Shown one piece after another: positions 6,971 to 40,527 of a stretch of DNA of 64,000 nucleotides (position 1 is the first letter of the stretch; every line of letters starts with the position of its first letter). Position numbers and translations under genes: made by a program. This DNA comes from an uncultured Bacilli bacterium (GTDB lineage Bacteria; Bacillota_I; Bacilli_A; RF39; UBA660): assembly GCA_910580185.1 (NCBI GenBank), contig CAJTWC010000003.1:34304-98303 (forward strand). The letters run 5' to 3'. The notes beneath the pieces were generated by a model that saw nothing but the letters and a program-made list of their open reading frames with translations, was not told the DNA's origin and made no database searches.

Positions 6971-7975
6971 ATGGATAACAGAATAATTACTTCTGAAAAA
7001 TTAAAAGAAGATAGTTTTGAATCAACTATAAGACCACAAAGCATTGATGAATACATCGGTCAGAAAGATATAGTAGAAAATTTAAAGGTGTTTATGAAAG
7101 CTGCTAAAATGCGTGGTGAAGCACTCGACCACGTCTTACTATACGGCCCTCCTGGTCTTGGTAAAACAACTCTTTCTTATGTAATAGCAAACGAGATGGA
7201 TGCCAATATTAAAACCGCATCTGGTCCATCAATTGAAAAATCAGGAGATTTAGCAGCGATTTTATCTTCGTTAGAAGAAGGCGACGTGCTATTTATTGAT
7301 GAAATACATAGAATGCCAAGGTTTGTTGAAGAAATACTTTATTCGGCAATGGAAGATTTTACCCTTGATATAATTGTTGGTGGAGAAGGATCTAATCGTA
7401 ATTTAAGAATCGATTTACCTAGGTTTACACTTGTTGGAGCAACAACAAGAGCTGGTGACTTGTCCGCACCTTTAAGGGACCGTTTTGGAATTGTATCGAA
7501 ACTTAATTATTATACTGAAGAAGAAATAACAGAAATAATTAAAAGAAGTGCAAGGGTGCTTGATTTAAGCATTGAAGATGAAGCTGCTAGTGAACTTGCT
7601 AACAGGTGTCGTAGAACCCCTAGAATAGCTAATAGATTACTTAAACGTGTAAGTGATTTTGCGTTAGTTAAAGGTAATGGAACAATTACCCTTGATATCA
7701 CGAAGTTTGCCCTTGATTCATTAAAAGTAGATAAACTAGGATTGGATGAGGTTGACTATGAATTATTAAAGACTATTATATATAAATTTAATGGTGGTCC
7801 CGTTGGAGTTGAAGCAGTTGCGGCATCCATCGGAGAAGAAGTATCAACAATAGAAGATGTATGTGAACCATATCTTTTACAGATTGGTTATTTAAAAAGA
7901 ACGCCAAGGGGGCGCATAGTAACTGATATGGCGTATAGACACTTAGGAATAGATAGGAATAGTAATAATGGCTAA
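6971..7975 (+). CDS. ruvB: Holliday junction branch migration ATPase RuvB
   Basis: AAA+ Walker [18 protein letters not shown] box, RuvB C-terminal winged helix; 334 aa. Confidence 0.95.
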
Positions 7976-8855
7976 CCAAATGCTTGAAAAATTAATTAGG
8001 GTATATGATGAAAATTTTGAAAAAGATAAAGAAGAATTTATGGACGCTGATTATTTAAAGAATTATATGTATTTAGTAAAAAATTATCGCGATTTAAATA
8101 AAACTTTTTTGAATGAGAAAAACGAGGAAATTAATAAAAATATTGATGCTTTTATTAGTTTAATATTAAATATGGTAAATAATTTTAAATTTTCAGTAGA
8201 AAAGGTATGGGCTATTTTGTATGCGTACAATTTATATAAATTATATGGGTTTAAAGTAAATAATTTAACATCTGCTGACATCAACTTATTGGTTAATTTA
8301 TATATGGGATTAGATAGAAAGTATTCTTTGTCATTTCTAAATAAAATAATGGATTTTATATTTGATGCTAATTTAAAAAATGAGCTTTATGATATGAATT
8401 TATCTTTAGGTGAATTAACAAATTTTTTATTAGAACCAATAGATGAATATATTGATGAGGGCATAAATTTTAATATTCCTTTAATTTTTTATATTAAAGA
8501 AGAAATTAAAAATAAAACACAAAATAAAGTAAGTACAAAGGAAACTTTAAGATTAAATTGGGATACACCCGAAGACATTTATGATAATTTAAAAAATAAA
8601 ATAACGTCCATGGCAAATTTGATGATAAATTCTGGTTATGAAAAACAAGAACAAGAAGGCTATGAACTTCTTTCTAATTTAGGAATGTTAGTATGTAAAT
8701 TAAAGAATATGTCAGAAGAAAACTTTGGTATTTGTAGAGAAACTATTAAAATTCTAATGGAAGATGAAAAAAGAAAACTTCAAGACAAATATTATCTAAT
8801 CTTTAGCTTGATTAATCAGCTTACTACATATAATTCTAATAAAGGTATGAAATGA
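7968..8855 (+). CDS. hypothetical protein inserted between ruvB and queA
   Basis: ORF of 295 aa; its start overlaps the ruvB stop; no known motifs. Confidence 0.45.
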
Positions 8856-8926
8856 TTTGAATTTTTAATTAAAATAATTTATAATAAGTACTTGCAATGT
8901 GCTTATTTTTGTTTGGAGGGATGTAT

Positions 8927-9949
8927 ATGAAGACTGATGATTTTGATTATGATTTACCAAAAGAACTTATCGCGCAAACGCCTCTTAAAAAAAGAGATTC
9001 TTCACGTATGATGGTGTTAGATAAAAAAACAGGCAAAACAGAGGATAAAATATTTACTGATTTAATCGATTATGTAGAAACAGGTGATACACTAGTTTTA
9101 AATGACACTAAGGTTATACCAGCAAGATTAATTGGACATAAGCCTGATACTGGTGCAGTGATAGAAGTTTTAATGTTAAAAGATTTAGGCGATGATGAAT
9201 GGGAATGCTTGACGAAACCTGCAAAGAGAATTAAAATCGGTACTACTGTTAAGTTTTCTGATGATTTATCTTGTAAGTGTACTTTTGTGGGAGAAGATGG
9301 AATTAGAAGGTATAAGTTTATTTATGACGGAATATTACTTGAAATATTAGATAAATTAGGGGAAATGCCACTTCCTCCATACATAACAGAAAAATTAAAT
9401 GAAAAAGATAGATATCAAACCGTTTATGCAAAAAATCCTGGTAGTGCAGCAGCGCCTACAGCAGGTCTTCATTTTACTGATGATGTTTTAAGTAAGATAA
9501 AAGAAAAGGGCGTTAGCATAGCATATGTAACACTTCATGTTGGACTTGGAACTTTTAGGCCAGTAAGTGTAGAAGATGTGACAAAACATGACATGCATCA
9601 GGAGTATTATGAAATGAGTGAAGATGTAGCTAATCTTCTTAATAAAACAAGAGATAATGGTAAAAGAATAATTGCAGTTGGAACAACATCAACTAGAGTA
9701 TTAGAAACAATTGCTGATGAAACGGGGCATTTTAAAGCACAATCAGGTAATACTAAAATATTTATATATCCTGGATATAAGTTTAAAGGAATTGATTGTT
9801 TACTAACTAATTTTCACTTACCTAAATCCACGCTGATAATGCTTATTAGTGCACTTGCGGGTAAAGAAAATGTTTTAAGTGCATATAAAAATGCAGTAGA
9901 CAAAAAATATAGATTTTTCTCTTTTGGAGATTGTATGTTAATAAAGTAA
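8927..9949 (+). CDS. queA: S-adenosylmethionine:tRNA ribosyltransferase-isomerase QueA
   Basis: Conserved N-terminus [20 protein letters not shown]; GGAGGG RBS 6 nt upstream of the ATG at 8927. Confidence 0.9.
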
Positions 9950-10134
9950 TGGAGGTATTATATGTTTATAGATAAAAAAGTTTTAGCTGATTTAAGAGAA
10001 GAAAAATGACCTTATCAAAAATTGATGAAGCCAAAGAAGTAAAAAAAGAAAATGTAAAGGTTTTAAGAAAAGAAAGAAAAAGATTAAAAACATTAAAAAG
10101 ACAATCAAAGAAATTAAATGATTAAGGAGAAAAA

Positions 10135-10380
10135 ATGTTAAAAAATAAATTAATTAATTTTAAAACAAAATTATCAAATTTAAGTATTAATTATTTTTAT
10201 AAAAACCTAATTAATAAAAGCCAAGGATTAGCTTTAAATGTAAAAGATACTTACACTGACGCTAATGGTTTTCACATAAAAAAAGGTAATGATGAAGTAA
10301 TAATTTCTAAAAGTGTAATTAAAGATCTTTGCAGGAAAAAAATTAAAAAAACATTAAAAAATAAAAAACACTTTAATTGA
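10135..10380 (+). CDS. small basic hypothetical protein
   Basis: AAGGAG RBS; 81 aa, Lys-rich; terminator hairpin overlaps its stop codon. Confidence 0.35.
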   Translation: MLKNKLINFKTKLSNLSINYFYKNLINKSQGLALNVKDTYTDANGFHIKKGNDEVIISKSVIKDLCRKKIKKTLKNKKHFN

Positions 10381-10404
10381 TAAAAGTGTTTTTTATGATA
10401 TAAT
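10377..10404 (+). promoter_or_regulatory. sigma70-like promoter for tgt (-35 TTGATA, 16-nt spacer, extended -10 TGaTATAAT)
   Basis: Read directly: TTGATA at 10377-10382 and TATAAT at 10399-10404 preceded by TG. Confidence 0.5.
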
Positions 10405-10424
10405 TGTTGAGGTAAAGAGGTTGA

Positions 10425-11549
<1,125 letters not shown>

Positions 11550-24702: not shown

Positions 24703-26427
24703 ATGAAAAAAATATTTAAATTCATATCAATTGCTATACTATTATTTATTTTTCCGCTTGTTGTAAAAGCAAATAGTATATCTTCCATTGATATGGATAT
24801 ATACGTAGATGAAAGTGGCACTGCACACGTAACAGAAACTTGGAGTGCTAATTTAAATCAAGGTACCGAAGGATATAAACCATATTATAATCTTGGTAAC
24901 GCAAAAATATCAAATTTTAAAGTTAGTGAAAATGGTAAAACATATACATATAATGACTATTGGAACACTAATGATAGTTTTGATAAAAAAGCATATAAAA
25001 ATGGTATTAATTATATTTCGGATGGTTTAGAGCTGTGCTGGGGTATAAGTAGTTACGGATACCATAATTATGTTTTAACTTATGATATAGAAGGATTTGT
25101 AGCAACCCTTGATGATGCTGATATGATTTATTGGACGCTTATTCCATACGAATTGTCATCGAAACCAGATGACGTACATATTAAAATACACACTGATAAT
25201 TATTTAAGTGATAGTGTGCCAGTTTGGGGATATGGAAATTATGGTGGTACTGCATACGTATATGATGGTTATATAGAAATGAATTCTGAAGGCACATTAG
25301 AATCAAATGAGTACATGACCATATTAGTTAAATTTGATAAAGGAACGTTTAATACATCTAATACATTAAGTGAAGATTTTGATTACTATCATGATATGGC
25401 AGATGTTGGTGCAACAAAATATAAGGATGATAAAAAATCAAGCTTTTTAGATATTATAATGTCCATCTTTGCAATCGTTTTTCATTTTTTTATTTGGGTT
25501 GTTGTTGTAATAACTATCTCTAAAAGTATGAAGAATGCTGCTAATAGAGTTGGCACTAAGACCTTTAATTTTGGTCCACAAGGGAAAGTATTACCAAAAG
25601 ATATACCTAACTATCGTGATATACCATTTAATAAAGACATATTTAGAACTTTTTGGATAGCAGAAGGCTATAAATTAAATAAAAACAAAACAGATTTTTT
25701 AGGAGCAATTTTACTTAAATGGTTAAAAGAACAAAAGATATCTATAAAAAAAGTAGAAGCTGGTTTTATAAAGAAAAAGGAAGAAACCGCAATTGATTTA
25801 ACCAAGGAAATAACCTTTGATGAAGTATTAGAACAAGAATTATTTGATATGATGAAAGAAGCAAGTCGTGATGGTATCCTTGAATCTAAAGAATTTGAAA
25901 ACTGGTGTGATGATAATTATAGTGAAATTTTAACCTGGTTTGATAAGGTAATAGATAAGGAAACTGATGAATTAATTCTTGAAGGAAAAATAACCGTAAC
26001 AGAAAAAACTAACCTTAAAGTATTTAAGTCCAAGGAATACGTAGTTGATCCATCGATGAAAGAGGAAGCTATTAAATTAAAAGGATTAAAGAACTTTTTA
26101 GAAGAGTTCTCAAGAATAGATGATAAAGAAGCGATTGAAGTAAATATGTGGGAATATTATTTAATATATGCACAAATACTTGGAATTGCAGATAAGGTTG
26201 CTAAACAATTTAAGAAATTATATCCTGAAATTATCGATAATCCAGAACTTGGTTATACATATACTGACATTATGTTTATACATATGGTAAGTCATAGTGG
26301 AATGCGCACAGCAACTACATCACAACAAAGAGCACAAAGCTATTCATCTGGCGGCGGCGGATTCTCTTCTGGAGGAGGTGGAGGCGGCTCCTTCGGTGGT
26401 GGTGGAGGCGGAGGAGGCTTTAGATAG
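24703..26427 (+). CDS. DUF2207-domain membrane protein (LemA partner) with a Gly-rich C-terminal tail
   Basis: Signal peptide, central TM, and C-terminal SSGGGGFSSGGGGGGSFGGGGGGGGFR typical of DUF2207; encoded directly downstream of lemA. Confidence 0.7.
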   Translation: MKKIFKFISIAILLFIFPLVVKANSISSIDMDIYVDESGTAHVTETWSANLNQGTEGYKPYYNLGNAKISNFKVSENGKTYTYNDYWNTNDSFDKKAYKNGINYISDGLELCWGISSYGYHNYVLTYDIEGFVATLDDADMIYWTLIPYELSSKPDDVHIKIHTDNYLSDSVPVWGYGNYGGTAYVYDGYIEMNSEGTLESNEYMTILVKFDKGTFNTSNTLSEDFDYYHDMADVGATKYKDDKKSSFLDIIMSIFAIVFHFFIWVVVVITISKSMKNAANRVGTKTFNFGPQGKVLPKDIPNYRDIPFNKDIFRTFWIAEGYKLNKNKTDFLGAILLKWLKEQKISIKKVEAGFIKKKEETAIDLTKEITFDEVLEQELFDMMKEASRDGILESKEFENWCDDNYSEILTWFDKVIDKETDELILEGKITVTEKTNLKVFKSKEYVVDPSMKEEAIKLKGLKNFLEEFSRIDDKEAIEVNMWEYYLIYAQILGIADKVAKQFKKLYPEIIDNPELGYTYTDIMFIHMVSHSGMRTATTSQQRAQSYSSGGGGFSSGGGGGGSFGGGGGGGGFR

Positions 26428-26507
26428 CCTTCTTTTTTCTTATAATCAATTATAAATAAAGTAAAGTATTAAAAAATAGAAAAAGTATAGTATAATTAAT
26501 TATAGAG

Positions 26508-26753
26508 GTGATATTTTTGGCTAATAAATCTAATAATTATAGTGATAGTAACTTAAACGAGTATGATATTAGAAATTTTTTAAAAAAAGATGAAGAAAGA
26601 AAAGCTTTTCAAAGGGATAAAGTAAAAATAGAAGTTGGAGATCTTCCTAATATTCTTGATGGATCAAGTTTTTATGATCCGTATAAAAAGGGAGTTTCTT
26701 TTAAAAGCCCTGATGGAAAATCAAAAGTTTTTTCTAAAGACTGTATTATATAA
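26508..26753 (+). CDS. small hypothetical protein (TTG start)
   Basis: AGAGGTG RBS 6 nt before the TTG; 81 aa. Confidence 0.3.
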   Translation: MIFLANKSNNYSDSNLNEYDIRNFLKKDEERKAFQRDKVKIEVGDLPNILDGSSFYDPYKKGVSFKSPDGKSKVFSKDCII

Positions 26754-26759
26754 TAGTAT

Positions 26760-26788
26760 TTGACTAATCTTTAAAAATATAATAAAAT
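26760..26788 (+). promoter_or_regulatory. sigma70-like promoter (-35 TTGACT, 17-nt spacer, -10 TAAAAT) driving the T-box leader
   Basis: Read directly from the sequence. Confidence 0.45.
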
Positions 26789-26793
26789 ATATT

Positions 26794-26935
26794 TAGTTTT
26801 TAGTAAGAAGTGACAACTTACAAATAAAATAAAAACTAGACAATTAAATAATATAAACAAAGAGCACTTATGTGAAATAGGGTGGCACCGTGGACAGATT
26901 TGTTCATCCCTATAACTTTAAGGCTCTTTTTATTT
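26794..26935 (+). promoter_or_regulatory. T-box-like leader RNA upstream of the GATase-hisS-ORF-aspS operon
   Basis: AAUAGGGUGGCACCGUGG at 26876-26893 matches the T-box consensus AAUUAGGGUGGNACCGCGG. A candidate antiterminator can be drawn as AGGG / 7-nt bulge UGGCACC / 7-bp helix GUGGACA:UGUUCAU / CCCU. A short stem-loop at 26794-26838 has a GAC (Asp) codon in its apical loop. A U-run lies at 26925-26935. A canonical terminator helix could not be drawn. Confidence 0.45.
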
Positions 26936-26949
26936 AATAAGGAGTGCTT

Positions 26950-27570
26950 ATGAAAAAAGTAGCAATATTACTTAGACTTAATAGAAAAGAAGAAAACGCT
27001 AAAGAAACGTTTTGGATAAAAGAAGACGTGATTAATGTTTTCAAAAATTATGATGTTAACTATTTTCTAATTCCTATGAATACCGCTTCGAATGATGATT
27101 ATGATAACATCATTGAAAAGATAAAGATGGCAGACGGTGTTATTATTCCAGGAGGAGTACGTGGTGGTTCTAAAATGGAACTAGATATTGTTAAATATTT
27201 ATATGATAATGATATCCCAACCATCGGTGTTTGCTTCGGACATCAAAGTATGGGCGTAGTATTTGGTGGTAAAAAAGAAAACGTAGAGGGCCACCATAAA
27301 TTAGGAGAAAAATATGTCCATTATGTTAATATAAATAAGGATTCTTTATTATATAAGATAATAGGTAAAGAAAGATTACTAGTTAATAGTAAACATAAAA
27401 AAATAGTTGTTGGTACAAGCTTGGATATTTCAGCATATAATGATGAAAATATGCCAGAAGCATTTGAAGATAAAACTAAAAAATGTTTTATAGGAGTACA
27501 ATGGCATCCAGAAAGTATAATGGATCTTGATAACAAAAAAATATTTGATTACTTTATAAGTAAGTTATAG
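26950..27570 (+). CDS. class I glutamine amidotransferase-like protein (peptidase C26 / gamma-glutamyl hydrolase family)
   Basis: GVCFGHQ nucleophile motif and QWHPE; AAGGAG RBS 7 nt upstream of the ATG at 26950. Confidence 0.65.
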   Translation: MKKVAILLRLNRKEENAKETFWIKEDVINVFKNYDVNYFLIPMNTASNDDYDNIIEKIKMADGVIIPGGVRGGSKMELDIVKYLYDNDIPTIGVCFGHQSMGVVFGGKKENVEGHHKLGEKYVHYVNINKDSLLYKIIGKERLLVNSKHKKIVVGTSLDISAYNDENMPEAFEDKTKKCFIGVQWHPESIMDLDNKKIFDYFISKL

Positions 27571-27583
27571 AAAGGAAGATATT

Positions 27584-28939
27584 ATGATAACTAAACCAAA
27601 AGGAACAAAAGATATTTATGGGGTAGAAGCTAAAAGATGGCAGTACGTATCTAAGGTAATAGACGAGGTAATGGAAAAGTATAATTATAACTTTATACGT
27701 GTTCCAGTATTTGAAGCAAGCGAATTATTTCATAGAGGAGTTGGAGAAACAACTGATATAGTAACAAAAGAAACTTATGATTTTACTGATCGTGGTGGTC
27801 GATGCATGACTCTTAGACCAGAAGGTACTGCGGGAGTTGCTAGATGTTTCATTGAAAATAAAATGTATGGTGATAATAACCAGCCAATAAAACTTTATTA
27901 TAATTGTCCGATGTATCGATATGAAAGACCACAAGCAGGAAGATATAGAGAACTTACTCAATTTGGTTATGAACTTATTGGAAGTGATGATCCACTAGCA
28001 GATGCTGAAGTAATAAGCCTTGCCGTTAACATATATAAAATACTTGGTTTAAAGGGAATTAAAGTTAATATTAACTCATTAGGGGATGCTGAATCTAGAA
28101 ATAACTATAGAGAAGCTTTAATTAATCACTTTAAACCACATATAGATGAGTTATGCTCTGATTGCAAAGAAAGATTAGAGAAAAACCCTTTAAGAATACT
28201 TGATTGTAAAGTTGATGCTGATAAAGAAGTTATGAAGACGGCTCCTAAAACAATAGATTACCTAAATAAAGAATCTAAAGAAAGATTTGAGAAAGTAAAA
28301 GAGTATTTAGAAGTTATGGGCGTTGAATACATAGTTGATCCATCAGTAGTTAGGGGTCTTGATTATTATAATCATACCGTGTTTGAAGTAGAAGCTGATA
28401 TTGAAGGATTTGGTGCTCAAAACGTTATTGGTGGTGGAGGCCGTTATAATGGCATGATAGAGCAGTTAGGCGGGCCTAGTACTCCAGCGATTGGTTTTGC
28501 AGCAGGCTTTGATAGACTAATGCTTGCTTTAGAGTATGAAAAGGTAAATATACCGGTAAATGAAAGCGTAGATTTGTTCTTACTATACGTAAATGATGAT
28601 GAGAAAAAATACGCTGCATACTTAACTAATGAACTTAGAATGAATGGTTTTGTTGTAGAAACCGATTATTTAAATAGAAGCTTAAAAGCAGGATTTAAAC
28701 AAGCCGATAGGTTAAATAGTAAATTCACTATCGTACTTAATAGTGAAATGTTAGAAAATAACGAAGTCAAAATTAAAAATAATAAAACTAAAGAAGAAGA
28801 AACTATATCAATAGATGCACTAATTTATTATTTAGATGAAAATATAATAGAAGATGAAAATTGTGGATGCTCGCATGATGATCATGAATGTGGTTGTGGT
28901 GATTCATGCAAGTGTCACAACAAGGATAATAATGAATAA
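27584..28939 (+). CDS. hisS: histidine--tRNA ligase with an unusual Cys/His-rich C-terminal tail
   Basis: Typical HisS N-terminus MITKPKGTKDIYG and class II motifs; 451 aa; C-terminus ENCGCSHDDHECGCGDSCKCH. Confidence 0.95.
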   Translation: MITKPKGTKDIYGVEAKRWQYVSKVIDEVMEKYNYNFIRVPVFEASELFHRGVGETTDIVTKETYDFTDRGGRCMTLRPEGTAGVARCFIENKMYGDNNQPIKLYYNCPMYRYERPQAGRYRELTQFGYELIGSDDPLADAEVISLAVNIYKILGLKGIKVNINSLGDAESRNNYREALINHFKPHIDELCSDCKERLEKNPLRILDCKVDADKEVMKTAPKTIDYLNKESKERFEKVKEYLEVMGVEYIVDPSVVRGLDYYNHTVFEVEADIEGFGAQNVIGGGGRYNGMIEQLGGPSTPAIGFAAGFDRLMLALEYEKVNIPVNESVDLFLLYVNDDEKKYAAYLTNELRMNGFVVETDYLNRSLKAGFKQADRLNSKFTIVLNSEMLENNEVKIKNNKTKEEETISIDALIYYLDENIIEDENCGCSHDDHECGCGDSCKCHNKDNNE

Positions 28940-29495
28940 TTTCGAAATAAAAGAGCTTATAAGACAAAAATTTAATGCTATATCAGATCCAGTAGTTGCT
29001 AAAAACTATGATGGTTTTATTGATCAAGATGGATACTTTTATGCATCTGCCCTTAAGTATCGACATGAACCAAGTCATGCTGATTTAGCCCTTGATATAT
29101 TAACTTACTATGATATCATAGTAAATGATGAAAAAGGTGGAATCTTTAGCAAGGTAAAAGAATTCATGTTTTCATATGTAAAAGATGATTATGAAAGAAA
29201 AAAATTGGCGCATTTAAAAGCTCACGTTAATCCAACTAAAGAATTAATTGAAAAATTAAAATTTATGTATTATAGTCATTCTCAAAAAGCCAACAGAAGG
29301 CCTATTATAGAAATAAATGATATGGGAATAGTAAGTAGAGAACAAAAAAATATGTTGATAAGTATTTTACAATTAAATAATGAGTTATCTTTTTTACCAG
29401 ATGATTTAATAGGCGCTAAAAAAGAAGAAATGCACCAAAGATATGTTGATAACTATATTATAAAAAATATGAATAAGGAGAATATAAACAAATGA
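28932..29495 (+). CDS. hypothetical protein inserted between hisS and aspS
   Basis: The ATG overlaps the hisS stop (ATGAATAA); 187 aa; no known motifs. Confidence 0.45.
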   Translation: MNNFEIKELIRQKFNAISDPVVAKNYDGFIDQDGYFYASALKYRHEPSHADLALDILTYYDIIVNDEKGGIFSKVKEFMFSYVKDDYERKKLAHLKAHVNPTKELIEKLKFMYYSHSQKANRRPIIEINDMGIVSREQKNMLISILQLNNELSFLPDDLIGAKKEEMHQRYVDNYIIKNMNKENINK

Positions 29496-30793
29496 TTAAT
29501 TATAAAGAATGTATAAATAAAAAAATTACAATATCTGGCTTTGCTGAAAAGGTTAGAAATCTTCAATGGGTACAATTTATAGTACTTAGAAATGAAGGTC
29601 AAAGAATTCAAGTCACTATTGAAAAGTCTGATGAAAAAAATAAAGAAATGGTTGAAATTGTAGATAAGTTAACCAACGAGTCAACCATTACGGTAACTGG
29701 AACAATAAAGGAAAATGAAAAAGTTAAGATGGGCGGTATGGAGCTAATCCCAGAATCTATTACCGTAACTAGCTTATCAGCGCCTGAACTTCCTATTAAC
29801 ATAACTAATAAGGATGCAGCAGCAATTGATACTAGAATGGATAATAGATTTATTGACCTTAGAAACGATGTTAATTTTCATATATTTAAAATACAAACTG
29901 AATTCGTAAGAGCGATGAGACAGTATTTATATCAAGAAGATTTCACTGAAATTCATACTCCAAAATTAATTGGAGCAGCATCAGAATCAGGTAGTGAAGT
30001 ATTCGAAGTTGATTACTTTGGAGATAAAGCATATCTTGCTCAATCACCACAATTTTATAAACAAATGGCAATAGCAGCAGGATATGAAAGGGTATTTGAA
30101 GTAGCGCCAGCATTTAGAGCAGAAAATTCAAACACTAATAGACACGCAACAGAATTCACTTCATTTGACTTAGAATTTGCTAACATAAGATCATATGAGG
30201 ATGTTATGGCCGTCGAAGAAGACCTTTTAGTAGAAGGCCTTACTGCAGTTAAAGAAAAATATGGAGATTTAATAAAAGAATTATATGGCGTTGACGTAGT
30301 AGTTCCAACTAGGCCATTCCCTAGAATAGACTTACAAGATTTATATAAAGAATTAAGTGAAAGATATGGTTATAAAGTACCCGATCATGATATTGGTGAT
30401 ATGAATGCCGAAGCAGAAAAATTAACTAGTCGTTATGCGATGGACGTATATGGTCATGAATTTATCTTTGTAACTGGTTTTAGTAAAGCAAAAAGACCAT
30501 TCTACCACATGAGAAAAGATGGTATTCCTCAAGGTTATGACCTTATCTGGAAAGGTACTGAAATAACAACTGGGGCACAAAGAGAACATAGATACGATGT
30601 GTTAGAAGCTCAAGCAAACGAAAAAGGTTTAGGAGAGGATATTAAATTTTATAAAGACTTCTTTAAATATGGATGTCCACCACACGGAGGCTTTGCGCTT
30701 GGAATTGATAGAATGACAATGTTACTTTTAGGATTACCATCATTAAAAGAAACAATGTTCTTATTTAGAGGGCCAAACAGAATTACACCTTAA
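29492..30793 (+). CDS. aspS: aspartate--tRNA ligase, archaeal/type-2 (short, about 433 aa)
   Basis: Class IIb motifs (FRAENSNTNRHATEF; GGFALGIDRMTMLLLGL); C-terminal ...FRGPNRITP ending typical of AspRS2; much shorter than the roughly 590-aa bacterial AspS. Confidence 0.8.
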   Translation: MINYKECINKKITISGFAEKVRNLQWVQFIVLRNEGQRIQVTIEKSDEKNKEMVEIVDKLTNESTITVTGTIKENEKVKMGGMELIPESITVTSLSAPELPINITNKDAAAIDTRMDNRFIDLRNDVNFHIFKIQTEFVRAMRQYLYQEDFTEIHTPKLIGAASESGSEVFEVDYFGDKAYLAQSPQFYKQMAIAAGYERVFEVAPAFRAENSNTNRHATEFTSFDLEFANIRSYEDVMAVEEDLLVEGLTAVKEKYGDLIKELYGVDVVVPTRPFPRIDLQDLYKELSERYGYKVPDHDIGDMNAEAEKLTSRYAMDVYGHEFIFVTGFSKAKRPFYHMRKDGIPQGYDLIWKGTEITTGAQREHRYDVLEAQANEKGLGEDIKFYKDFFKYGCPPHGGFALGIDRMTMLLLGLPSLKETMFLFRGPNRITP

Positions 30794-30817: not shown

Positions 30818-31384
30818 ATGGAAAATAAAAATAATAATTATGTAAAAGAAGCATTTGATAAAATTGAACATAGAAAAATTTTACTTAATAATAGAGCAAT
30901 TGAAGCAGATAATTATATAAATAAATTAAATAATTTCATTTTGTATAATAATATGGAAATAAGCTCAATAGTATGTGAAGAAATGCAGTATTACGTAGGA
31001 AATTTAATATGTAATATTTTATTAATTGAAAATGCTATATTAGCTAATATAGTTACAGCTAATGGCTCAGATCCTAATATAATATTTATGTCTTTAAGTA
31101 TTTGTGAGTCTATAAGATTAGCAGATAATAATAATTTTTCTAGAAAATTCATACCTTCTCTTAAGGATTTGTTAAGTAATATATTTGAATTAAAAAAAAT
31201 GAATCGTATTGCACGTAGGCAAATTAATAATAAAGATATTGAGTTAGAAAAATATAGAAAAGAATGTGAATTAAAGGCCCACGAAATAATAAACAACATA
31301 TTTTCAGAAGAAAATATGTATTACGACGGAAACGTCATAAATGAAGAAATAGATAAAGCTAAATCAATAGGTAATAATAATTAA
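30818..31384 (+). CDS. hypothetical protein
   Basis: GGAGGG RBS; 188 aa. Confidence 0.45.
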   Translation: MENKNNNYVKEAFDKIEHRKILLNNRAIEADNYINKLNNFILYNNMEISSIVCEEMQYYVGNLICNILLIENAILANIVTANGSDPNIIFMSLSICESIRLADNNNFSRKFIPSLKDLLSNIFELKKMNRIARRQINNKDIELEKYRKECELKAHEIINNIFSEENMYYDGNVINEEIDKAKSIGNNN

Positions 31385-31525
31385 AATTACAAGTAAGTAT
31401 GAAATATCAAAAAATAATATAGATTAGTATATTATTTTTTTATTTACAAGATATAACCATTTATTATTGTTTTTTAATTTAAAATAATATATAATTATCT
31501 TAGAATGAATAGGAGTGGGATTATG

Positions 31526-32173
31526 AAAGAAGAAATGCTTAGTTTAGAAGCTGATTTTGCAAACAATGAATATTTTGGCACCAACGTATGGACTGATGAA
31601 AAATACCGTGTATTAAGCGGTAATGTTCCTGTCCTTCTTTCAGCACCCCACACTGTTAATCAAATAAGAGGCGATGATGTTAGGGATGCCGAGAAATTTA
31701 CTGGAGCACTAGTAAGATATTTATCTTCTGCAACCAATTCATACGCAATATTTCAAATTTTTACTCACTCTGATCCAAATACTGATAAAGAAAATGATTA
31801 TAAAAATGGTATTATAAACATCATAAATGGTTTTAATATAAAATTATTACTTGATATACATTCTAGTACATTTAAAGATGATACTGATATTGACATTGTT
31901 ACAAACAATAGAGAATCATTAAGGGGAATGGATACTTTAGTTGATAAATTAAAAGAGTTAGGTATAAAATATGATGTTAAATTTGATGAAATGAACGAAC
32001 CAAATAAACAAAAAGAAAACGAAATAATATATGCATCATCATTACTATGTAACATCCCATCTATAAGATTAGTTATTAATAATAAAAGATTAAACATAGA
32101 AGAAGATGATTCATCAATTAAAAAAATAGAAGAATTATTAGAGGAGTTTATATCGTATTTTAATTATTCATAG
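31526..32173 (+). CDS. hypothetical protein
   Basis: AGGAGTGGG RBS upstream of the ATG at 31526; the ORF track begins at 31505. Confidence 0.45.
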   Translation, partial: KEEMLSLEADFANNEYFGTNVWTDEKYRVLSGNVPVLLSAPHTVNQIRGDDVRDAEKFTGALVRYLSSATNSYAIFQIFTHSDPNTDKENDYKNGIINIINGFNIKLLLDIHSSTFKDDTDIDIVTNNRESLRGMDTLVDKLKELGIKYDVKFDEMNEPNKQKENEIIYASSLLCNIPSIRLVINNKRLNIEEDDSSIKKIEELLEEFISYFNYS

Positions 32174-32194: not shown

Positions 32195-32224
32195 TTGAAT
32201 AAAATATTACATAAGTGATATAAT
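32195..32224 (+). promoter_or_regulatory. strong sigma70-like promoter (-35 TTGAAT, 18-nt spacer, extended -10 TGaTATAAT)
   Basis: Read directly; the transcription start is predicted near G32231. Confidence 0.5.
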
Positions 32225-32230
32225 ATAAAT

Positions 32231-32409
32231 GCCTAAAGGTATCGGGCGCTAGCACATTTAACCCGCTAAGATTTAATAGGGAATCAGAATCAATAGTGGT
32301 GTTCATGCTTAAATTTATTTAAGAAGTCTAAAACTATTGTGGGATGCCCACCTGCGAGAATTGCAGGTTTATCTTGTTAGCAAACGACCCTTTGGGTTCT
32401 TTTTTTTTA
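32231..32409 (+). ncRNA. candidate stand-alone structured small RNA of about 180 nt, identity undetermined
   Basis: The locally GC-richer segment lies between a strong promoter and an intrinsic terminator (ACGACCC-UUU-GGGUUCU followed by U9). It contains adjacent hairpins GUGGG-AUGC-CCCAC and CCUGC-GAGAAUU-GCAGG. There is no long ORF, and the downstream gene has its own TTGACG/TAACAT promoter. Confidence 0.35.
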
Positions 32410-32500
32410 CAAAAAAACGTTTGTTCATAATTTTTTAATAAATGATTTGACGAAGAAGCTCTTTTTTGTTAACATAATTTTTATAAAAAGGAGAAATTTT

Positions 32501-33136
32501 ATGGCCATATATGAAAAATTAAGTCATAATCAAAACGTAGTTTATCATAAAACTTCAAAAACTTCTGATAAATACAATAGTTATTTAACTCATGAGTGGC
32601 TATTTATTAATTTGTTGTACAAGGAAGAAATAAAAAAAGATCTTGAGCTTGCTAAAAAGTTTTTAATGTATATGATACAATATCATCCAGAGTATAAATG
32701 GACTAGCTTAGATTTAAACAATCCCGTTGGAACAGTTATATTAGAAAGCGATATTTCAGATAAAACTTTTAGTGGAATTAACATATTTAAAGACGAGGAA
32801 GAAGCTAAAACGAAAGCAATGGAATACGGGGAAAATGTCACAGACTTTTTAATACGTTATAGAGGTTATTCTTTAATAAAATGCCAAAATGAAAACATTA
32901 TAATTACAGCCCAAAGTAATTGTGATAAAATATTTGAAGAAGAATTATATAATGGATATTCACTCCAAAGGAAAGCAAAACTCCGTTATGTAAAAACAGA
33001 TGATATAATTAGAAAAACGTATCCTATGATTGATGGATATTTTACTCATTTACCGGTTCTTCCAACAAAAGAAATTGGAATTGAGATAGATGAAATGATT
33101 GAAAATACTGATGGTGTTTTTGTAAAAGTAAAATAA
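32501..33136 (+). CDS. hypothetical protein
   Basis: AAAGGAG RBS upstream of the ATG at 32501 (the ORF-track start at 32447 is unlikely). Confidence 0.45.
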   Translation: MAIYEKLSHNQNVVYHKTSKTSDKYNSYLTHEWLFINLLYKEEIKKDLELAKKFLMYMIQYHPEYKWTSLDLNNPVGTVILESDISDKTFSGINIFKDEEEAKTKAMEYGENVTDFLIRYRGYSLIKCQNENIIITAQSNCDKIFEEELYNGYSLQRKAKLRYVKTDDIIRKTYPMIDGYFTHLPVLPTKEIGIEIDEMIENTDGVFVKVK

Positions 33137-36578: not shown

Positions 36579-37085
36579 ATGGAAAATGAAAATGTAATTG
36601 CAGTAAAAAAATATATTTTATCTCTTAATATTGAAAATAAAACTAAAATAGTGATTTTAAATGAATTTAATGAATTTATTAAATCGCTTAAAAATTTCTA
36701 TGATAAAATATTACAAAACAATTCAGAAACTGCAGAAATGTACATAAAAATTAATTGTGAAAAATTTAAAAACAATTTAGATACTTATGTTTTTTCAAAT
36801 AATAATCCTACAAAGCATATAAAGTACATTAAAAAACATATTTCTAAGGAAAATGAAAGAAAAATAAAAAATGATAAGCTAGAAGCGATATATACATTAA
36901 TAAAAACAGATAATTTAAATAATACGTTTTACAAAAGAATTCTAACATGCTCTACTGTAAATTATGATACTTTATGTGCTGATATAAGAAATTTAGCATA
37001 TTTTTTAGGATATAGTGACCTAATAGATAATAATGAAAATTATACGGACTTAGATATTCAAACAACAATAGATAAACACCAATAA
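36579..37085 (+). CDS. hypothetical protein
   Basis: ORF of 168 aa; followed by the palindromic terminator at 37088-37112. Confidence 0.4.
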   Translation: MENENVIAVKKYILSLNIENKTKIVILNEFNEFIKSLKNFYDKILQNNSETAEMYIKINCEKFKNNLDTYVFSNNNPTKHIKYIKKHISKENERKIKNDKLEAIYTLIKTDNLNNTFYKRILTCSTVNYDTLCADIRNLAYFLGYSDLIDNNENYTDLDIQTTIDKHQ

Positions 37086-37178
37086 AATTAAAAGCTAATT
37101 AGCTTTTTTATTTACGATTTTATTATTTAAAATTTGACAAATATTAATAGCTATCGTAACATTAAATGGGAGGATTTT

Positions 37179-37682
37179 ATGAAACCAGATTATAAAACAA
37201 GAGAAATAAATAAATTAGTTATTAATTTAGAAACACTAGGTATAGGAAAAAAAGCAATTAACTATATAAAATTAAAATTTAGTGATATTCAAAATAATCA
37301 GCATGAAAAAATAAAATCATATAACAATATACAATTTGAAAAACAGGAATATTATGCTACACAAATTAAATTCTTTAAAAAAATTGAGAATATCTATAAT
37401 TCAATAAATAGTATTGTTAAATTAACCAATTCACTTCCTGAGGTAGTGCTTAAAAACAATAAATTATATTATATAAATAAAATTAAAAATTTAAGTGAAG
37501 ATAAAGATGAAATTTTACTATTTATATTAAAAACAGGAATTAAAACAGATGATTTAATAAGCCTGCTTCACTTATTAATAAAGTCGCATAATGATCTAAC
37601 AAATGCAACAGTAAGTAAATATATTGATAAAATAAATAATGAAATAAGCTATAGCGCAAAAAATTCAACACCTAAAAGGTAA
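37179..37682 (+). CDS. hypothetical protein
   Basis: GGGAGG RBS upstream of the ATG at 37179. Confidence 0.4.
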   Translation: MKPDYKTREINKLVINLETLGIGKKAINYIKLKFSDIQNNQHEKIKSYNNIQFEKQEYYATQIKFFKKIENIYNSINSIVKLTNSLPEVVLKNNKLYYINKIKNLSEDKDEILLFILKTGIKTDDLISLLHLLIKSHNDLTNATVSKYIDKINNEISYSAKNSTPKR

Positions 37683-38571: not shown

Positions 38572-38658
38572 TTTCCGAAAATCTTACGATTAAATAAAAA
38601 ACATTGCTAATAAAAATATAATTTGTTATAATAACCACCATATAAGGTGGTTATTATT

Positions 38659-40527
38659 ATGGAGCAAAAGGAAAAAACAATTTTATTCGTCATAGATGTT
38701 AGTGAAATAATAAATTCAAATGTTAATTATGATGATATTAAATATTTCTATGAAAAAATAAATAATAAAAGAGAATATGAAAAGGCAGATAAAATAACCA
38801 TAGTTATAACTGATTTTAAGTGTAATAGCACACGTGATGACTTATGTGAATATGGATTGCAATTAAAACAAATATTAGGACATGATATTAATTTTTATCG
38901 TTATAATTATACTCAAGCTGATAAAAACACTGACTTTTCTAATATGACAAGCTATCAAATGCAGTGCACTAACAATCATCATAAATATAATTTTATACTT
39001 AATATAATTAATAAAGTTAGTAAAAAATATAACGTAGTATATACTGCTTTAATGCATGATTTAAATATTTTTGATACATCAGAGGAATTCCAAGCTAAAG
39101 AAGAGATAAAAGCCATAAATAATATTTGTAAATTTGATTTATTACTTAACTCTAACAGAGTAAATAATTTACAAAATACTTACAATGATCATCTAGTTAT
39201 ATCAAGTAATAATAACCTATATGGATATGCTGAAAGTTTAGCGGTTAAGATGGATTTCGACAATGGTATAATGCCAAATGAAACATACCGAGAATATAAT
39301 TTAAAAAATAAAAAACAAAAGAAAGATATGCTAATTATAATTGATGCATACAATATGGGTATGTATGAAGATTTATATGATGATTTATTAAATAATATTA
39401 TTTCTAAAAAACAAGAAGTAGGAGCTGATGATATATATATCGTAGTTTCTAGTCGAGTGCCTAACTATTTTACAAAAGATGAATTAAAAGAAATAGGACG
39501 TGAGATCCGATATATATTAGGGGATGAAGCTAAATATTACGTTAATGAATACGCTTCTAATGATAATCATCAATCAACTCTTAATTCATCTAATAATCTT
39601 TATTTAAATCATGCAATTGAAACAAAAAATTCATTTTCAAAAAAATATAAAGCTAATTTTATATATACTGCATACTTTACTAACGCTTTATCTTATAATA
39701 ATATTAACATATTTAATAAAGAGAAAATGAATGATTCAAAAATAGATTTTTTTGCTCATAGTGCTGAAAAAGATATAAATGGCGTAGTATGTTCAAATGT
39801 TAATGGGCTTGATGCGCTTAATGATTGCTTAATATACTCTATGAATAAAGATAATTATAAAGATAATGATACATCAGTTAATAATAAAGAAATAACTGTA
39901 TTTTACTGTGATATAGCTGGTACTATAGATTATATAACTCATAATAAGGATATGATTAAAACTTTAAATGATAAATTAATAGAATTAAACCAAACTCATG
40001 GTACTAATAAAATATTGTTATGTTTAATAACTAATGATAGTGATTTAAATTATTTGAATGGTTTCATAAATGAATTAAAAAATAAAATAGATTCTAGTAT
40101 TATTTTTACTGACCATTTCTATGTTGAAGGAGCATTAATAAATGGAAAATTAGTACAAGAAGGTGGAAGTGTTGGATATAACAAATTTGGAAAAATTAAA
40201 TATCACCTAAATAAATTAATAAACAATGGATATAAAATCAACTATGTATATTTTGCAGATGATAATATGGATGAATATGATGTATTTAGTTTTGATGAAT
40301 ATTTGCCTAATGAGACTAATGGCCGGTTATTAATCCCAGATAATAATTGTAATATAATAGAAAATTATATAATCCCATCTGAATTCCAAAATATAGATGG
40401 ATTAATAGATTGCATAAACAAGAGTATTGAATTAGAATGTTCTAAAGAAAAAGGAATAGCATATAAAAAACAATACATTGCAAAAACAACCGAGGTAGAA
40501 GATGACGATGATGATTTACCATTTTAA
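38659..40527 (+). CDS. large Asn-rich protein with three internal repeats of a HAD-like domain (paralog family member 1)
   Basis: Repeats begin ILFVIDVS, LIIIDAYNMG and ITVFYCDIAGT; the last repeat has DxxGT, a downstream LITND motif, YFADD, and a C-terminal GLIDCINK motif shared with the next two genes; AGGTGG RBS lies inside the hairpin at 38632-38653. Confidence 0.45.
   Translation: MEQKEKTILFVIDVSEIINSNVNYDDIKYFYEKINNKREYEKADKITIVITDFKCNSTRDDLCEYGLQLKQILGHDINFYRYNYTQADKNTDFSNMTSYQMQCTNNHHKYNFILNIINKVSKKYNVVYTALMHDLNIFDTSEEFQAKEEIKAINNICKFDLLLNSNRVNNLQNTYNDHLVISSNNNLYGYAESLAVKMDFDNGIMPNETYREYNLKNKKQKKDMLIIIDAYNMGMYEDLYDDLLNNIISKKQEVGADDIYIVVSSRVPNYFTKDELKEIGREIRYILGDEAKYYVNEYASNDNHQSTLNSSNNLYLNHAIETKNSFSKKYKANFIYTAYFTNALSYNNINIFNKEKMNDSKIDFFAHSAEKDINGVVCSNVNGLDALNDCLIYSMNKDNYKDNDTSVNNKEITVFYCDIAGTIDYITHNKDMIKTLNDKLIELNQTHGTNKILLCLITNDSDLNYLNGFINELKNKIDSSIIFTDHFYVEGALINGKLVQEGGSVGYNKFGKIKYHLNKLINNGYKINYVYFADDNMDEYDVFSFDEYLPNETNGRLLIPDNNCNIIENYIIPSEFQNIDGLIDCINKSIELECSKEKGIAYKKQYIAKTTEVEDDDDDLPF

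Follow-up and report, generated by a model that had tools for sequence, protein, structure and literature searches.

In Bacillus, Lactobacillus and other Firmicutes, the genes for histidyl-tRNA synthetase (HisRS, hisS) and aspartyl-tRNA synthetase (AspRS, aspS) lie in this order behind a single upstream T-box leader with a GAC specifier and a UGGC bulge. The specifier motif of such hisS-aspS operons is GACAC, which has been attributed to tRNA-Asp (PMC5313534, citing Gutierrez-Preciado 2009). In a survey of 547 genera, bacterial-type AspRS was found to be vertically inherited, while archaeal-type AspRS was a rare additional copy in bacteria; the GAD insertion domain marks the bacterial type, and its absence serves as the criterion for the archaeal type (PMC4206432). 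Here we analysed a 64-kb stretch of contig CAJTWC010000003.1 from an uncultured Bacilli bacterium, referred to below as the window. It carries an operon with the same gene order and the same kind of leader signals, to which an unannotated gene between hisS and aspS (ORF187), an amidotransferase-like gene and a further orphan gene (ORF188) are added, and its aspS is of the archaeal type. The leader also differs from the leaders of the Firmicutes operons, as it is only about 125 nt long, lacks the distal platform of Stem I and scores below the Rfam threshold. The locus combines a T-box-controlled hisS-aspS operon with an orphan family lodged inside it and with repeated replacement of the AspRS type in situ, and it amounts to more than an annotation gap.

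The window was compared to HisRS relatives on GTDB contigs, taking one genome per species (loci numbered L005-L087). All of these are metagenome-assembled genomes of uncultured gut bacteria, labelled as Bacilli, Tenericutes, Mycoplasmatota, Candidatus Aphodocola (Bacilli incertae sedis in the NCBI taxonomy), Candidatus Faecimonas, Clostridium sp. CAG:451 or Mycoplasma sp. CAG:877.

An orphan gene embedded between hisS and aspS

A sequence-only reading of the window had proposed that hisS and aspS, which are normally adjacent, are separated here by an additional gene of unknown function. Adjacency is indeed the rule within the group: in 60 of the 77 related species loci that have both genes, the two abut, either overlapping or lying at most about 65 nt apart. 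Two loci with 68-70% identical HisRS, L033 and L047, have neither an aspS within 6 kb 3' of hisS nor the leader motif GGUGGNACC within 1.5 kb 5' of it, so that either the linkage does not extend to the whole group or the hisS genes of these two loci are second copies. In the window, the sequence ATGAATAA at 28932-28939 includes both the conserved ORF187 start and the TAA stop of hisS, an overlap of 8 nt, and the ATGA at 29492-29495 includes both the aspS start and the ORF187 stop. Shine-Dalgarno-like sequences precede the two starts (AAGGA 5 nt 5' of the ORF187 ATG, AAGGAG 11 nt 5' of the aspS ATG). An extra unannotated gene is thus wedged between the two synthetase genes as proposed, and the overlaps at both of its ends set it up for translational coupling: ribosomes ending hisS could begin ORF187, and those ending ORF187 could begin aspS.

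An open reading frame without any annotated homologue might be no gene at all, but spacer that happens to lack stops or the remains of a gene in decay, and an AlphaFold2 run with 5 close sequences only was poor (pLDDT 41). Against this, a stop codon is expected every ~11 codons because the window has 26% G+C, and the chance of 187 codons staying open at this composition is ~1e-8. Nei-Gojobori dN/dS ratios of ORF187 were 0.10-0.25 in the subgroup of the window (three relatives) and 0.17-0.36 in eight further pairs, and they remained well below 1 in 13 comparisons. The neighbouring genes gave 0.06-0.14 (hisS) and 0.03-0.07 (aspS) by the same method, and selection on ORF187 is estimated to be purifying but relaxed. 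Its G+C content at third codon positions (GC3, 0.18) matches that of its neighbours, indicating a native codon composition, and independent metagenome contigs carry copies that are 63-99% identical at the equivalent place. When 31 family members were aligned, AlphaFold2 returned a confident model (pLDDT 83.9, pTM 0.74), in which predicted strands at residues 26-30, 36-41, 112-116 and 124-127 are packed with helices; the extra ~18-residue insertion that the subgroup of the window carries is modelled at low confidence. Residues G28, I30, G34, H49, A53, L105 and H116 are invariant over the 31 sequences. Y26, F36, Y37, Y114, Q138 and Y171 are almost invariant, and the same holds for H45 and N149 in a set of 15 sequences. 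The view that ORF187 is not a gene is refuted as far as sequence analysis reaches, and we give it virtually no credence. ORF187 is a true protein-coding gene, and the family to which it belongs had not been described before.

No ordinary annotated homologue was found, in agreement with the earlier proposal. None of the 31 members matched Pfam, and ORF187 had no match in NCBIfam, PHROGs or PADLOC; its profile returned nothing from the PDB sequences at E values up to 10, and a fold search against solved structures found no relative. A word-indexed search of 5.8 billion proteins identified 4 relatives; when 1.84 billion cluster representatives were searched exhaustively with a profile, 15 clusters matched, and a second profile search gave 23. 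Weak Foldseek matches to tRNA-His guanylyltransferase (E ~8, TM 0.22) were considered and dismissed as noise.

The position of the gene is conserved in relatives. In each of the 25 loci that could be placed, the family member is flanked by hisS and aspS; this holds even for the most divergent ones (23-27% identity, with different upstream genes), and stops and starts overlap or nearly abut. No second copy was found in the 1.08 Mb of sequence examined. In the HisRS tree only one sub-clade has the family, and HisRS of this sub-clade is at least 80% identical to that of the window. Within this sub-clade it is absent from L010-L012, L014, L021, L022, L025 and L026, a distribution that needs 5 gains or losses. 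The presence or absence of ORF187 does not co-vary with that of the HisRS Cys/His tail or of the amidotransferase gene described below, and a tie to either was rejected.

ORF187 diverges about ten times faster than the neighbouring genes. Between the window and L009, the identity is 93% in HisRS and 95% in AspRS and only 28% in ORF187, and between L023 and L024 the corresponding values are 94%, 88% and 48%. In L016 and L020 a family member precedes a bacterial-type, GAD-containing aspS, and ORF187 is therefore not an adaptor specific to archaeal-type AspRS. The near-neutral predicted isoelectric points of the family (5.6-8.8) make a classical basic RNA-binding protein unlikely.

Exchange of aspS types behind hisS

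The AspRS of the window was proposed to be the short archaeal or type-2 enzyme on the basis of its length and of its C-terminal FRGPNRITP, and the domain analysis bears this out. Pfam identified an OB-fold (tRNA_anti-codon, residues 13-92) and a class II core (tRNA-synt_2, residues 113-423) and nothing else; a GAD domain was not found by Pfam, and is present in the 580-582-aa enzymes of L016, L020, L056 and L040. The enzyme scores above the curated cutoffs of NF003483 (454 versus 353 bits) and TIGR00458 (381 versus 368 bits). Its best PDB relatives are Thermococcus enzymes (3nel and 1b8a, E 1e-91 to 4e-90), followed by Thermus AspRS2 (1n9w, E 8e-80).

The closest solved structure is that of Thermococcus kodakarensis AspRS (1b8a, 3nel), which aligns over residues 6-433 and is the archaeal enzyme of an archaeon. 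The lysine at K85 is common to both proteins, whereas the W26 of the Thermococcus enzyme is a glutamate in that of the window. AspRS2 of Thermus thermophilus and Deinococcus radiodurans (1n9w) shares the OB-fold and class II core without GAD, and matches over its full length. In Thermus and Deinococcus, however, the archaeal-type AspRS is non-discriminating and supplements a bacterial-type AspRS (PMC4206432), while the window enzyme occupies the canonical slot behind hisS, where it alternates with the bacterial type in sister species.

Behind hisS, 41 of the 79 species carry an archaeal-type aspS (433-439 aa) and 38 a bacterial-type one (579-584 aa), with the same kind of T-box for both. The two types are dispersed over the HisRS tree. 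Fitch parsimony on this tree, a single-gene neighbour-joining tree, requires at least 17 switches of aspS type over the 79 tips, compared to 26.6 +/- 2.4 when the labels are shuffled. The closest pairs of mixed type by HisRS identity are L015/L016 (95%) and L032/L056 (94%). At the DNA level, L015 and L016 are 88.7% identical through hisS and nearly all of the ORF, up to 40 nt before the ORF stop, and homology is back within 5 nt after the aspS stops; L032 and L056 behave likewise, and in both pairs homology breaks off over aspS and returns within ~25 nt of its stop. ORF222 comes after aspS in most of the close relatives, with copies that are 62-94% identical in L008-L027.

One locus carries both types. 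L040 corresponds to its sister L041, which has a bacterial-type aspS only, with 1.34 kb added between hisS and the bacterial-type aspS. Its positions 7360-10438 include hisS, an archaeal-type aspS that is split by a frameshift (243 + 196 aa), and a bacterial-type aspS (582 aa). This tandem may be a replacement intermediate caught in the act or a remnant, and the frameshift might be an assembly error.

The identities of archaeal-type AspRS follow those of HisRS (r 0.78). Bacterial-type identities track HisRS weakly (r 0.43, down to 45% at 80-85% HisRS identity), which suggests several donors. Judging from these comparisons, the aspS position is a replacement hot spot, at which the archaeal and the bacterial type take each other's place as exact cassettes, flanked by hisS on one side and the downstream gene on the other. 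Replacement appears to run in both directions, with L040 as a possible tandem intermediate.

Genes for aminoacyl-tRNA synthetases are known to undergo xenologous (non-orthologous) displacement through horizontal transfer, examples being drug-resistant copies of IleRS or TrpRS. The exchange described here resembles it, as one synthetase type is replaced by a distant type of the same specificity. Unlike the classic cases, the aspS swap takes place in situ, is precise to the coding region and is recurrent (at least 17 times in 79 species). A literature search returned no published account of an alternation of aspS types.

Archaeal-type enzymes raise the question of specificity. A non-discriminating AspRS would charge tRNA-Asn as well as tRNA-Asp and leave the conversion of Asp-tRNA-Asn to GatCAB, in which case the operon, possibly including ORF187, would serve the supply of asparagine. 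Both of the best NCBIfam models are named 'aspartate--tRNA(Asn) ligase', although this name is a naming convention and not a test of specificity. The homology to 1n9w, a structure labelled non-discriminating, points in the same direction, as do the fit of the UGGC bulge to G73 of both tRNAs and the absence of asnS from the window, from ~5 kb beyond its left end and from a contig of another assembly recovered at its right end. The same sequences hold no gatA/B, gatC or second aspS either, although the window includes lysS, and no tRNA-Asn gene was found in any of the sequences examined; the right-end contig carries only mutS and unannotated genes next to nusB.

Two residues argue against non-discrimination. 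Feng and colleagues are said to have described in 2003 that a histidine at the W26 position and a proline at the K85 position decide the acceptance of tRNA-Asn in archaeal-type AspRS. At these columns of the Thermococcus enzyme the window enzyme has E19 and K79, while His and Pro stand there in the Thermus enzyme that was deposited as non-discriminating. The first column is E or D and the second K in every one of the group's 35 archaeal-type enzymes. The leader codon is GAC and not AAC, and sister species carry the bacterial-type enzyme in the same slot, so that the two types seem to be functionally interchangeable. Non-discrimination, which the sequence-only reading had suggested, is not supported by the two residues, on the rule as reported, or by the leader codon, and we consider it rather doubtful. 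Since it occupies the housekeeping aspS slot, a replacement hot spot, the window enzyme is most likely the main AspRS of the cell and not an extra paralogue that charges tRNA-Asn.

The shortened leader, the transcription unit and its surroundings

The Rfam T-box model (RF00230) matched positions 26790-26914 with 31.6 bits (E 6.7e-5), which is below its gathering score of 93; the canonical leaders of distant relatives exceed this score (L056 98, L032 95.7 bits). The leader of the window has a 5-bp hairpin, GUAAG/CUUAC, whose loop AAGUGACAA contains GAC (Asp), and an A-rich linker. The T-box sequence AUAGGGUGGCACCGUGG at 26875-26891, which includes the UGGC bulge and is predicted to form the bulged helix, is the same, letter for letter, in 21 relatives. 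A U-run comes after an outer helix, AAGAGCACUU/AAGGCUCUU. Folding placed the bulged T-box helix inside the outer helix, nested and not competing with it, and gave a minimum free energy of -35.2 kcal/mol (z -4.1). Conservation in 21 relatives extends over the leader as a whole; the hairpin shows one compensatory change (G-C to A-U in L013), and GGUGGCACC is common to the leaders of all relatives.

The reduction to ~125 nt is a property of one sub-clade (the window, L005 and L008-L027). In the window leader the distal platform with its AG bulge and distal loop is absent, as 74 positions of the Rfam model are deleted, while GAC followed by A is present. The specifier loop of distant relatives reads GAA-GAC-A, often GACAC. 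Because a second conserved GACAA lies ~25 nt 3' of the leader hairpin, the specifier assignment is one that we infer. As the codon GAC is shared with the canonical T-boxes of the relatives and with published hisS-aspS leaders, the leader is expected to read tRNA-Asp and not tRNA-Asn. The bulge had been put forward as compatible with both tRNAs; it does fit both, but the codon points to tRNA-Asp. Uncharged tRNA-Asp would cause read-through of the leader.

T-boxes with an ultrashort Stem I have reportedly been found ahead of actinobacterial ileS, in work ascribed to Sherwood and colleagues in 2015. The window leader is like these in that Stem I is a short helix with the specifier in its terminal loop and without a distal platform for the tRNA elbow. 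It is unlike them in belonging to a Bacilli lineage and to a different gene, and, in the predicted fold, in the apparent lack of Stem II and IIA/B, in the U-run after the outer helix and in the nesting of the bulged T-box helix within that helix.

The leader is followed by the amidotransferase-like gene, hisS, ORF187, aspS, ORF188 and ORF222, in this order (Table 1). The nearest terminator-like hairpin upstream of the promoter-like site is at 26410-26435, and a pattern scan of the + strand found no terminator-like site between 26436 and 32350, the leader's own helix and U-run excepted. Because the region is free of terminator-like sites up to the 6S RNA gene, the six genes are probably co-transcribed, and the amidotransferase-like gene through ORF222 would form one transcription unit under the control of T-box(Asp).

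Table 1 Features of the hisS-aspS region of the window, and loci of the second family found in the hisS-aspS gap of relatives
Feature	Position	Strand	Basis or remark
Promoter-like site TTGACT-17-TAAAAT, ahead of leader	26760-26788	+	Pattern scan only
Shortened T-box leader	26790-26935	+	Rfam T-box match, conservation, folding
Class I glutamine amidotransferase / Peptidase_C26-like gene, between leader and hisS	26950-27570	+	Pfam GATase 1.4e-22, Peptidase_C26 2.3e-22
hisS, histidyl-tRNA synthetase, 451 aa, acidic Cys/His-rich C-terminal tail	27584-28939	+	TIGR00442, Pfam
ORF187, 187 aa, ATG 28932, TGA 29493-29495	28932-29495	+	Clade-restricted new protein family
aspS, archaeal-type (type 2) AspRS, 433 aa, ends ...FLFRGPNRITP	29492-30793	+	No GAD domain
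ORF188, orphan gene directly 3' of aspS, terminator-free junction	30818-31384	+	No Pfam/NCBIfam/PHROG/PADLOC match
ORF222, conserved unannotated gene, downstream anchor of swapped aspS cassette	31505-32173	+	No family match (Pfam, NCBIfam)
Second gap-filling family	L042 5234-5641; L058 7368-7769; L061 7393-7794; L087 7393-7800		No Pfam or PADLOC match

HisRS of the window is a full equivalog of TIGR00442 (488 bits versus a cutoff of 287) and matches Pfam tRNA-synt_His and HGTP_anticodon. Its C-terminal tail (28851-28936, residues ~423-451) is acidic and rich in Cys and His, ENCGCSHDDHECGCGDSCKCHNKDNNE. Across the group (L005-L087) such tails reach up to ~60 residues of CxC/HxH repeats in some species, e.g. 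CGDDCSCGDDCSC, whereas L021-L025 and L027 have lost the tail. Its appearance is that of a metal-binding appendage, and we know of no description of such a HisRS tail.

The amidotransferase-like gene is found between the T-box and hisS only in the window, L005, L008-L010, L023 and L027; the remaining relatives have 60-80 nt between T-box and hisS. It is curious to find an amidotransferase under a leader that senses tRNA-Asp. The only homologue of ORF188 that was found is at the equivalent place in L010 (63% identity). ORF188 and ORF222 belong to a run of ORFs without Pfam match, and without NCBIfam match where tested, which continues at 32447-33136, 36579-37085, 37134-37682 and 38647-40527, the coordinates of the first two being those of Table 1; one of these ORFs encodes 626 aa. 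The lineage is rich in unannotated proteins.

A 6S RNA gene lies at 32227-32402 (Rfam 65 bits), with a promoter-like site at 32195-32224 and a terminator-like hairpin at 32386-32398, and occupies the equivalent place in L009, L015, L016, L023, L032 and L056. Upstream of the operon, a LemA gene precedes a gene for a DUF2207 membrane protein (24703-26427) that ends in a glycine run (GGGGFSSGGGGGGSFGGGGGGGGFR). Between the terminator of the latter gene and the T-box promoter, a 78-81-aa ORF (26508-26753) is also called as a gene on metagenome contigs. The surrounding genes include queA-tgt, lysS, secDF, relA, dtd, tcdA and rarA/mgsA. This wider neighbourhood matches that of B. subtilis, with queA-tgt, secDF, relA and dtd upstream and tcdA and rarA/mgsA downstream.

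Role of ORF187 and meaning of the locus

We think it fairly probable that ORF187 is a real accessory gene of an orphan family, co-expressed with the synthetases, and that the archaeal-type aspS encodes a replaceable main AspRS. The ORF187 product would be a soluble cytoplasmic protein of ~22 kDa with a four-stranded sheet plus helices, a dispensable accessory made alongside both synthetases and independent of the AspRS type encoded downstream. H45, H49, H116, Y26, Y37, Y114 and Q138 plausibly form a putative metal- or ligand-binding site. That the protein has an effect on the synthetases, or that it is only carried along in the operon, are possibilities to which we give roughly equal weight.

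Several points weigh against this combined reading. Homology ties ORF187 to no activity, and the His/Tyr site is deduced from the alignment and the predicted secondary structure. A single ancestral insertion followed by vertical descent would explain the strict positional conservation equally well. An unrelated orphan family of 133-135 aa ('...GFLVNKNKMIGYTSYMEY...') fills the same hisS-aspS gap in another sub-clade, before a bacterial-type aspS, which favours a permissive slot over a functional link; that these ORFs are distant relatives of ORF187 was rejected by hhalign (probability 1%). The repeated loss of ORF187 and its relaxed constraint argue that it is not essential. As to aspS, recombination could distort the single-gene HisRS tree behind the switch count, and a second aspS may lie elsewhere in the genome, the search having covered the window, ~5 kb to its left and the right-end contig.

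ORF187 may have nothing to do with aminoacylation, and be a gene of this lineage that entered a permissive and well-expressed gap of an essential operon on a single occasion and was kept because the operon was never broken up. The second family in the gap of L042, L058, L061 and L087 fits this view, as does the whole aspS gene inserted in the same gap in L040. So do the extra genes at other junctions (the amidotransferase-like gene before hisS and ORF188 after aspS), the several losses of ORF187 under relaxed selection, and the many neighbouring ORFs of the lineage that likewise belong to no family. It accounts less well for the overlaps with both synthetase genes, which almost every member has retained or re-formed, also where aspS was replaced (L020), and for the persistence of the family down to 23% identity without ever being relocated. 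We regard it as a serious possibility, although not as the probable one.

A patchy and fast-diverging gene between two conserved essential genes, at a junction with frequent recombination, might also be a selfish or mobile insert, either a free-standing homing-endonuclease-like gene or one derived from a phage, which would drive the exchange of cassettes. In the alignment and the model, a beta-hairpin followed by conserved His residues loosely resembles His-Me finger nucleases. Neither Pfam nor the fold search, however, found the motif or fold of an HNH, GIY-YIG or other nuclease in ORF187, and no relatives were found on viral contigs or in PHROGs. Its GC3 is native and its selection purifying, and in the large clade entirely without the family, aspS types switch at least as often. 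We consider such an insert very improbable. A phage or defence origin, for which PHROGs, PADLOC and viral contigs offered nothing, is likewise unsupported.

A bolder version of the accessory-gene reading is that ORF187 is a new-fold protein with a His/Tyr site, made in stoichiometric amounts with HisRS and AspRS, which would modulate His and Asp aminoacylation or protect the enzymes or their tRNAs. It would do so at a junction of AspRS exchange, which might in turn be driven by Asn/Asp-tRNA metabolism or by gut toxins that target synthetases. We put this forward as speculation that is unlikely to hold in full.

The combined reading, in which ORF187 is an accessory gene beside a replaceable main AspRS, bears on both halves of the operon. 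A predicted well-folded family without a sequence or structural relative is found inside a synthetase operon that is among the most conserved in Gram-positive bacteria, and it is a concrete target in the search for new translation-associated factors in uncultured gut bacteria. In the literature, archaeal-type AspRS of bacteria is a rare surplus copy that serves asparagine synthesis (PMC4206432); in the present operon it fills a housekeeping slot. Whether the AspRS type is correlated with the asnS and gatCAB content of these genomes is directly testable. The alternation of the two types among species with 94-95% identical HisRS provides a natural experiment on the interchangeability of AspRS and on the drivers of synthetase replacement.

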